A stretch of 2,895 nt of DNA from a virus (taxonomy: Duplodnaviria > Heunggongvirae > Uroviricota > Caudoviricetes): the IMG/VR virus record IMGVR_UViG_648276660_000017, one strand, 5' to 3'. Below the pieces are notes generated by a model. The model made no database searches. It was not told where the DNA came from and saw nothing but the letters and a program-made list of their open reading frames with translations. Shown here in pieces: positions 2,043-2,637 of the stretch. The translations under genes and the position numbers were made by a program. Positions within the stretch are counted from its first letter, which is position 1, and the number at the start of each line of letters is the position of its first letter.

Positions 2043-2108
2043 AATGATGCTTGGCCTGAAGTATTTTATGTAATTGGTATTGCTATATTTTTATCTGGGG
2101 ATAAACGA

Positions 2109-2351
2109 ATGTTCTCTCTGATTCAACGTGGTCAGATATACACCGATAGCGCTGGCTATCCAGTAAAAATCATTCGTAGTACTGATCACTCAGTATTCTT
2201 CAAGAGGATGGATGGCTATCCTGGAAGAGTGTGCATCAGAAAATTCAATAATTTATTCGAACACATTGATCACAGAGAATATCACCAGATCCTGGCTGAA
2301 ACAGAACAGGAGAACCATCTGAAAAAATTACGTGCTATGCAAAGGAGATAA
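2109..2351 (+). CDS. Hypothetical 80-aa protein (possibly DUF4222-like) in an AT-rich moron-like pocket
   Basis: ORF in frame +3, ATG 2109, with GGGGA at 2096-2100 about 8 nt upstream; stop TAA 2349-2351. Translation: MFSLIQRGQIYTDSAGYPVKIIRSTDHSVFFKRMDGYPGRVCIRKFNNLFEHIDHREYHQILAETEQENHLKKLRAMQRR. The pattern G-x2-Y-x-D-x2-G ... V-x-F-x-R-x2-GY ... C ... F resembles small DUF4222-type phage proteins found near integrases, but this is recalled and unverified. GC is lower than in the upstream genes (about 37% in a 60-nt hand-counted sample, against about 53% in a sample of the DUF550/551 gene). Confidence 0.65.
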   Translation: MFSLIQRGQIYTDSAGYPVKIIRSTDHSVFFKRMDGYPGRVCIRKFNNLFEHIDHREYHQILAETEQENHLKKLRAMQRR

Positions 2352-2400
2352 ACCGGTAAAGGTGTTCGCGATAAAGGTGAATATCGGCAATGAATAACAA

Positions 2401-2430
2401 TCCTCGCACTCGCGGGGATTTCTTTTATCT
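2401..2430 (+). terminator. Hairpin plus U-tract (terminator- or attenuator-like), first of a tandem pair
   Basis: Inverted repeat tcctcgc (2401-2407) / gcgggga (2412-2418) with 4-nt loop actc: 7 bp including one G-U wobble at 2404/2415. Followed by tttcttttatct (2419-2430). Confidence 0.35.
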
Positions 2431-2458
2431 GAACTCGCTACGGCGAGTTTTGTTTTAT
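2431..2458 (+). terminator. Hairpin plus U-tract (terminator- or attenuator-like), second of a tandem pair, immediately upstream of the 55-aa gene RBS
   Basis: Perfect inverted repeat aactcgc (2432-2438) / gcgagtt (2443-2449) with 4-nt loop tacg, extendable by a G-U pair at 2431/2450. Followed by ttgttttat (2450-2458), which runs into the GGAG at 2459-2462. Confidence 0.4.
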
Positions 2459-2469
2459 GGAGATGATAA

Positions 2470-2637
2470 ATGCACTTCCGAGTCACAGGTGAATGGAATG
2501 GAGAACCATTCAACAGAGTTATCGAAGCAGAGGACATCAACGACTGCTATAACCACTGGATGATATGGGCGCAGATAGCGCATGCAGACGTAACCAATAT
2601 TCGAATTGAAGAACTGAAAGAACACCAAACCGCCTGA
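2470..2637 (+). CDS. Hypothetical 55-aa mini-protein (absent from the supplied ORF track, probably below its length cutoff)
   Basis: ATG 2470 in frame +1 with GGAG at 2459-2462 (7-nt spacer); stop TGA 2635-2637 sits in the loop of a strong intrinsic terminator hairpin. My translation: MHFRVTGEWNGEPFNRVIEAEDINDCYNHWMIWAQIAHADVTNIRIEELKEHQTA. Composition is balanced and protein-like. I believe I have seen near-identical hypothetical proteins next to xis/int in enterobacterial prophages, but cannot name a family. Confidence 0.6.
   Translation: MHFRVTGEWNGEPFNRVIEAEDINDCYNHWMIWAQIAHADVTNIRIEELKEHQTA

Follow-up and report, generated by a model that had tools for sequence, protein, structure and literature searches.

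The DUF4222 gene and its prophage setting

We have analyzed a stretch of 2,895 nucleotides of viral DNA (from here on, the window; Caudoviricetes, IMG/VR virus record IMGVR_UViG_648276660_000017) and, within it, a small gene at positions 2109-2351 that codes for a protein of 80 amino acids (aa). A previous reading of these letters, made without database searches (the sequence-only reading), had described its product as an orphan protein with an internal repeat and a basic tail. The window is 100% identical to positions 1650888-1653782, minus strand, of the chromosome of Escherichia coli MS 198-1 (NZ_CP146687.1). According to the RefSeq annotation, the surroundings are the right end of a lambdoid prophage in which everything from N onward lies on the same strand. 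The order is N, Ral, CIII, Kil, a Rad52-like recombinase, Ssb, an exonuclease and an anti-RecBCD protein, then DUF5405, DUF2737, two Ead/Ea22-like genes, a 69-aa open reading frame (ORF) and a dATP/dGTP pyrophosphohydrolase/DUF551 gene, and finally the ORF under study, a 55-aa ORF and torI, the gene of a KplE1-type excisionase. Beyond torI come the host genes csc, dsdA, emrKY and evgAS. This gene order makes our ORF the third-from-last gene of the early-left operon. Its features are:

2097-2101, plus strand: Shine-Dalgarno-like GGGGA, read from the sequence, 7 nucleotides (nt) before the ATG
2109-2351 (stop codon included), plus strand: coding sequence of the 80-aa DUF4222 protein WP_000492058.1, from the ORF list and the RefSeq annotation of the 100% identical locus
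2118-2270, plus strand: DUF4222 domain (aa 4-54), predicted to be a five-stranded SH3/Tudor-like small beta-barrel
2271-2348, plus strand: conserved C-terminal helix (aa 55-80; helix at 55-79 in the AlphaFold model), with an acidic first half and the basic end HLKKLRAMQRR

The ORF runs from ATG to TAA and its 80 residues read exactly as had been quoted. It is a real gene, because start codon and length are conserved (all the homologs share the N-terminus MF..) and the ratio of non-synonymous to synonymous substitutions (dN/dS) was 0.15-0.31. These ratios come from 6 of 15 allele pairs, the more distant ones where dS was computable; in the other 9, including the closest ones (dN 0.13-0.25), dS was saturated. 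The protein has an isoelectric point (pI) of 9.72, and its last 11 residues carry a net charge of +5. The proportion of guanine plus cytosine (GC) was 0.395 in the ORF and 0.318 in the 66-nt spacer upstream, against 0.471 in the remaining window. The low GC noted before is therefore real, but the recent horizontal acquisition read into it does not follow, GC being uninformative on recency. It shows only the typical AT-rich phage accessory DNA found in a prophage.

The protein matches the Pfam family PF13973/DUF4222 with 56.1 bits (cutoff 27; E 2.6e-15) over aa 4-54, covering positions 2-53 of the 53 of the profile, and phrog_285 over its full length (E 1.8e-33). RefSeq names WP_000492058.1 "DUF4222 domain-containing protein" as well. 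The suspicion of a DUF4222 protein, for which the sequence-only reading had proposed precisely this Pfam search, was thus well founded, and we regard the membership as practically certain. The protein is hardly an orphan. A profile search recovered 642 clusters (90% identity) of homologs at E <= 0.001, a word-indexed search 66 close ones, and an exhaustive representative search matched 21 clusters. By blastn, a DNA homolog was detectable in 914 of the 5426 complete E. coli genomes. The allele of the window is rare in the same collection, with at least 95% identity in 40 records and at least 99% in 16. A tblastn search found homologs in 186 phage records from Escherichia, Shigella, Klebsiella, Enterobacter and Salmonella, among them Stx1- and Stx2-converting (Shiga-toxin) phages, BP-4795, phiP27, phage 21 and HK639. 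The homologs sampled are about 80 aa long and start with MF.LI, and the protein of the window belongs to this lambdoid-phage subfamily (about 80 aa, start MF.LIQRGQ). The members of the family as a whole are small and basic, and are encoded in lambdoid prophages and phage-inducible islands of enterobacteria.

The ORF gave no match in NCBIfam, and a search of Rfam at a permissive threshold on both strands found nothing near any gathering score. A likeness of IYTDSAGYP to YD/RHS repeats was considered and dropped, since Pfam yields DUF4222 alone. YmfH of e14, XisR of Rac and RcbA, positional neighbours of xis in K-12, were checked and are not DUF4222 proteins. Two of the 21 clusters of the representative search are metagenomic proteins of 955 and 1387 aa (P0076 and P0083). 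They had scored E 1e-6 to 9e-4 because their repetitive KYNDLNGNG stretches match the 80-aa query; a Pfam scan of P0076 and a look at both sequences showed them to be large SdrD-B/prealbumin-fold repeat proteins, and we discarded them as spurious. Such repeat-driven matches are a pitfall to remember in searches with this family.

Predicted fold and comparison with RgdR

An AlphaFold model of the 80-aa protein was built with an alignment of 61 sequences. It reached a predicted local distance difference test (pLDDT) of 87.8 and a predicted template modelling score (pTM) of 0.70. The elements are strands at residues 10-12, 18-24, 28-33 and 38-42, a helix at 43-49, a strand at 51-53 and a long helix at 55-79. 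Five antiparallel strands close a barrel of about 50 residues in the model, as in the Tudor/SH3-like small-barrel fold. As a prediction, the SH3/Tudor-like small-barrel class of DUF4222 is secure; the functional subclass of the modelled barrel is not. Two previous impressions agree with the model, a beta-rich N-terminal part and a charged, helical-looking tail. The latter is an acidic stretch followed by the basic end, predicted as one helix with a charge split of -3/+5. Across the 61 sequences I61, L74 and R75 of this helix are invariant, and E66, H70, K72 and M77 nearly so.

The generic SH3-like small barrels, such as the KOW domain of NusG/Spt5, the SMN Tudor domain, eL21/eL14, PWWP and TnsB, have five strands as DUF4222 does and share with the model the short helical turn between strands 4 and 5. 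They differ from it in that none is significant by sequence or by Foldseek E value. Sequence searches of the PDB, with the single protein and with the profile, gave nothing significant; the weak echo of eL21 (best single-sequence match, E 0.13) and the retinoic acid receptor (best profile match, E 0.09) were taken as noise.

Our literature search on DUF4222 led to one characterised protein, the virulence regulator RgdR. It is ECs1581 of E. coli O157:H7 Sakai, encoded in a phage-inducible island (CP-933C, O-island 51) (Flockhart et al. 2012, PMC3378721). RgdR raises the transcription of LEE1, in the enterocyte effacement locus (LEE), with or without Ler, requires Ler for raised type III secretion, lowers motility and increases Congo-red binding (PMC3378721). 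Its DNA binding is weak and non-specific (PMC3378721; these phenotypes and the binding are also described in PMC10877973), and its authors proposed that it is a cofactor of other regulators (PMC3378721). We have verified that ECs1581, taken from the Sakai genome, has a computed mass of 11.70 kDa and a pI of 10.09, the published values of RgdR (PMC3378721).

RgdR scores 82 bits on DUF4222 (56 for our protein). Besides, it is small and basic (pI 10.09 vs 9.72), is encoded by a mobile phage-related element of E. coli and has the same predicted barrel-plus-helix topology. When 61 lambdoid-type sequences were compared with 29 of the RgdR type by hhalign, the two groups aligned with 92.6% probability (E 4.6e-7) over 75 columns that include the C-terminal helix. 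The order of elements in an AlphaFold model of P0147, a protein 96% identical to RgdR, matches that of the query, and each of the two models has five predicted strands, with a short helix separating strands 4 and 5 and a long helix at the C-terminus. The P0147 model differs in that its N-terminus is extended by a disordered stretch and a linker precedes the helix; in RgdR itself these are a 17-residue extension and a proline-rich linker. One predicted fold thus comprises two subfamilies, the proteins of about 80 aa from lambdoid phages and the RgdR proteins from the islands.

Position in the prophage and possible role

In every lambdoid context examined (MS 198-1, phage 21, Shigella phage 75/02 Stx, BP-4795, and E. 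coli and Lelliottia prophages) the DUF4222 gene was found 0-2 small ORFs upstream of xis/int and on the same strand. The upstream neighbour is variable and can be DUF551, NinX, DUF5406 or an ORF without family. Shigella phage 75/02 Stx has the order exo, DUF4222, an unannotated ORF of helix-turn-helix excisionase type and int. A positional analogue exists in lambda, Ea8.5, a small gene, not essential, that directly precedes xis where the pL operon ends; the reported fold of its product is a homeodomain/zinc-finger hybrid and not a beta-barrel. On the downstream side, two features of the window separate our gene from torI:

2399-2450, plus strand: two tandem terminator-like hairpins, each with a T-run, downstream of the DUF4222 gene (consensus scan; RNA fold)
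2470-2637, plus strand: 55-aa ORF, phrog_676 (E 4.7e-39), adjoining the DUF4222 allele

The consensus scan gave 5 terminator-like sites in the region where 0.5 would be expected, and the RNA fold of 2399-2450 had -26.3 kcal/mol (z = -5.1). A further terminator-like hairpin, bidirectional, is seen at 2627-2646, between the 55-aa ORF and torI. Read-through of both probably needs antitermination. We take the DUF4222 gene to be an accessory one that is not essential, located at the distal end of the early-left (pL-type) operon and immediately upstream of the excision and integration genes. To judge from gene order and strand, its protein would appear once the prophage is induced or a cell infected, as N-type antitermination carries transcription through the operon.

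The explanation that we prefer, with a probability of roughly 0.55, is that the gene codes for a DUF4222 member of this accessory kind whose barrel and basic helix would serve as a transcription cofactor, as proposed for RgdR. The basic SH3/Tudor-like barrel and the conserved helix with its +5 end would dock on a host transcription or nucleoid protein, and/or on DNA; this contact, made without sequence specificity, would shift transcription, as the homology to RgdR suggests. By analogy with RgdR a sequence-specific regulator is unlikely. The mechanism of a small cofactor shifting transcription is itself put forward tentatively; like the timing of expression, it is something that we infer. What our data show directly is the family membership, the predicted fold, the place of the gene and the statistics of the repeat.

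Several observations weigh against this explanation. None of the proteins studied belongs to the lambdoid subfamily, and identity between the query and RgdR is about 19%, with a direct BLASTP E value of 0.016. The marks of the RgdR functional group that we examined, the RGD tripeptide where strand 1 starts, the lysine K35 and a location upstream of primase, are all absent from the query. RGD is replaced by R7-G8-Q9 and K35 by I22 (next to R23), and while RgdR adjoins a primase gene in its island, the query precedes the 55-aa ORF and torI, so that the two subfamilies may have different partners. In the RgdR-type proteins themselves the R of the RGD motif is variable (R, N, H, K, P). The small-barrel fold serves many unrelated functions, and Foldseek against PDB and BFVD gave no match at E <= 0.001, its listings above that value being ribosomal, PWWP, TnsB, MscS and DUF1653 barrels. 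Finally, a promoter scan around the gene found no promoter-like site, and the timing of expression is accordingly taken from operon logic alone; together with the hairpins, this would fit expression from a distant early promoter under antitermination.

An unlikely alternative, although the best placed of those considered, is a host-takeover, toxic or anti-defence protein with a target unrelated to transcription. Many small AT-rich genes of this lambdoid region act on host processes, Kil, CIII, Ral and the anti-RecBCD protein are encoded in the same operon, and the lambdoid DUF4222 subfamily has no known function. However, the ORF has no match in PADLOC, and the sole experimental data in the family concern gene expression and DNA binding. 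We give slightly less credit to a barrel that mimics the RNA-polymerase-binding Tudor domains of UvrD/PcrA, CarD and Mfd and, by binding the lobe of the beta subunit, retunes host transcription globally. The action of RgdR on LEE1 with or without Ler and its pleiotropic effects speak for it. Against it, the C-terminal Tudor domain of UvrD/PcrA and the polymerase-interacting domain of CarD (PDB 7egt, 7egs, 5dma, 4l5g), which are parts of large proteins, have only 4-10% identity to the query and no sequence-level relationship to it, and in Foldseek it is ribosomal, PWWP, TnsB and MscS barrels that come first. The likeness may be due only to the small-barrel fold that they have in common.

A broader conjecture, about which we are equally doubtful, is that DUF4222 proteins are miniature Tudor-like factors of phages and islands that would bind the RNA polymerase beta lobe or H-NS/Ler filaments and lift the silencing of AT-rich foreign DNA. 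The H-NS/Ler option fits the over-expression of RgdR, in which LEE goes up, motility goes down and Congo-red binding goes up. This pattern resembles the loss of H-NS, and the likeness makes counter-silencing a testable version of the cofactor model.

The fixed place of the gene beside xis/int and the attachment site could also point to an accessory factor of prophage excision or integration. We consider this improbable, since the recombinase does not co-vary with the gene. Of two near-identical alleles, that of the window is accompanied by a TorI-type excisionase and that of another E. coli (GCA_017306995.1, locus L008) by a lambda-type Exc and an Arm-DNA-bind_1 integrase, and more distant DUF4222 members adjoin at least three further integrase types, which argues against a specific partnership with recombination proteins. 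Besides, in some prophages an ASCH-domain gene takes the slot, which is mosaic, and the neighbour that follows RgdR is a primase gene.

The significance of our results is small in so far as the gene was already annotated in RefSeq as DUF4222, in a family with a published founding member, RgdR. They add a confident assignment of the predicted family fold, an SH3/Tudor-like barrel with a conserved basic helix, the recognition of the lambdoid proteins and the island RgdR proteins as two subfamilies of that fold, and the fixed place of the lambdoid subfamily beside xis/int whatever the recombinase type. Should DUF4222 proteins indeed act on RNA polymerase or H-NS, this would explain a tuning of host virulence and motility genes by prophages, and would concern many E. 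coli prophages, Shiga-toxin phages included.

Three minor observations touch the position of the gene. In phage 21 (M61865.1; L003, 350-586) there is an unannotated 79-aa DUF4222 ORF (67.5 bits) upstream of xis, and at its 3' end it runs into the annotated icd pseudogene segment by which the attachment region is marked. The excisionase-like ORF of Shigella phage 75/02 Stx (NC_029120.1; L004, about 3290-3510) carries a helix-turn-helix sequence that includes MDSHSITLKEACQFLKISRPTAVNWIRTGRL. A 55-aa gene, likened to that of the window by position and length, occupies the equal position in L008 and in a further locus, L017, despite differing xis/int modules.

The GYP repeat, a 60-bp duplication and the mosaic of the window

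The sequence-only reading saw in two similar segments, SAGYPVKIIR and MDGYPGRVCIRK, a hint of an internally duplicated small beta-rich fold. The second segment lies at aa 34-45 as it said; the first exists too, at aa 14-23 rather than 15-24. The 8-nt core GGCTATCC that they were said to share is indeed present twice, at 2154-2161 and 2214-2221 instead of 2152-2159 and 2212-2219. Actually the exact direct repeat is 9 nt long, and its copies are 60 nt apart and in frame, that is, exactly 20 codons:

2153-2161, plus strand: first copy of TGGCTATCC, the codons A-G-Y-P (aa 15-18), left boundary of the 60-bp unit duplicated in L008
2213-2221, plus strand: second copy of TGGCTATCC (aa 35-38), specific to the query allele

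A repeat of this kind is within chance. An exact direct repeat of at least 9 nt appeared in 10.7% of the codon shuffles and 10.0% of the base shuffles of the ORF, and the two 60-nt units are identical in register at 24 of 60 positions. At the protein level the best internal alignment was of six residues, GYPVKI/GYPGRV, with a score of 22 where shuffles gave 18.7 +/- 3.4 (P = 0.16). The family tells the same. The first site (aa 16-18) is G[YWF]P in 24 of 61 aligned DUF4222 members; the second (aa 36-38) is so in only 2, both from the cluster of the query at 99% identity or more, while the remaining 59 have GHN, GRT, GRV, GRI and similar tripeptides. Among 118 MF-type proteins, two G[YWF]P motifs were found only in the cluster of the query and in two derivatives (P0001 and P0003). 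The closest other alleles have GGATACCCT and GGTTACCCA at the first site and GGACACTCC and GGGTTAACA at the second, in codons that differ from those of the query at both, and the 9-nt identity is therefore a recent accident of the query allele.

When the two halves of the family were compared by hhalign, the probability was 0.5-2.2% and only the conserved glycine aligned. Nor do the segments have the same setting in the AlphaFold model, when their secondary-structure context is compared. The first covers the beta1-beta2 loop and beta2 and is followed by a tight hairpin to beta3; the second covers the beta3-beta4 loop and beta4 and is followed by the helix 43-49 and beta5. To our knowledge, SH3-like barrels are not two-fold duplicated folds either. 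Although both segments start with G-Y-P, lead from a loop into a beta strand and share the nine bases, a protein built of two duplicated GYP units with a symmetric beta fold is highly improbable in view of these data. The two GYP segments are not an internal duplication, and the second GYP arose by point changes in the query allele only.

What the 9-nt direct repeat does matter for is slippage, as a hotspot, and for nothing else. In the E. coli genome GCA_017306995.1 (contig JAFLEO010000074.1; L008, 3001-3303) we have found an exact 60-bp tandem duplication whose units start with TGGCTATCC. Its product, P0001, is a protein of 100 aa that is the same as the 80-aa one with the residues YPVKIIRSTDHSVFFKRMDG repeated, and the duplication doubles the beta2-beta3 hairpin. 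Apart from the 60 bp, this allele differs from the query by four bases. Slippage between the two 9-nt copies, or unequal exchange, leaves just this signature, and the case shows cleanly how a chance repeat of 9 nt can seed an in-frame duplication of 60 bp.

The rest of the window shows signs of mosaicism. The region 2344-2400, at the end of the DUF4222 gene, is a mosaic joint, with 91-98% identity to prophages and plasmids in which the ASCH-domain gene replaces it. On the upstream side (2040-2111), the DUF551 ORF ends in a TGA that shares its frame with the ATG of the DUF4222 gene, with no intervening stop. A DUF551-DUF4222 fusion of 159 aa with TGA read as W (P0084, 12 contigs) represents either a true loss of the stop codon or gene calling under a code in which TGA is Trp. 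Positions 1269-2042 form a single ORF of 257 aa with a dATP/dGTP pyrophosphohydrolase domain (PF04447, aa 42-137) and DUF551 (aa 199-256), which RefSeq divides into a pseudogene fragment (1269-1388) and a coding sequence (1362-2042); two common lambdoid accessory genes seem to have been joined here in a mosaic fusion. The two Ead/Ea22-like genes are consecutive (1-99 and 132-1061), the first being a truncated pseudogene in RefSeq. The C-terminal half of the second product (309 aa) matches other phrogs (phrog_3205), which suggests, at the level of sequence matches, another mosaic fusion.
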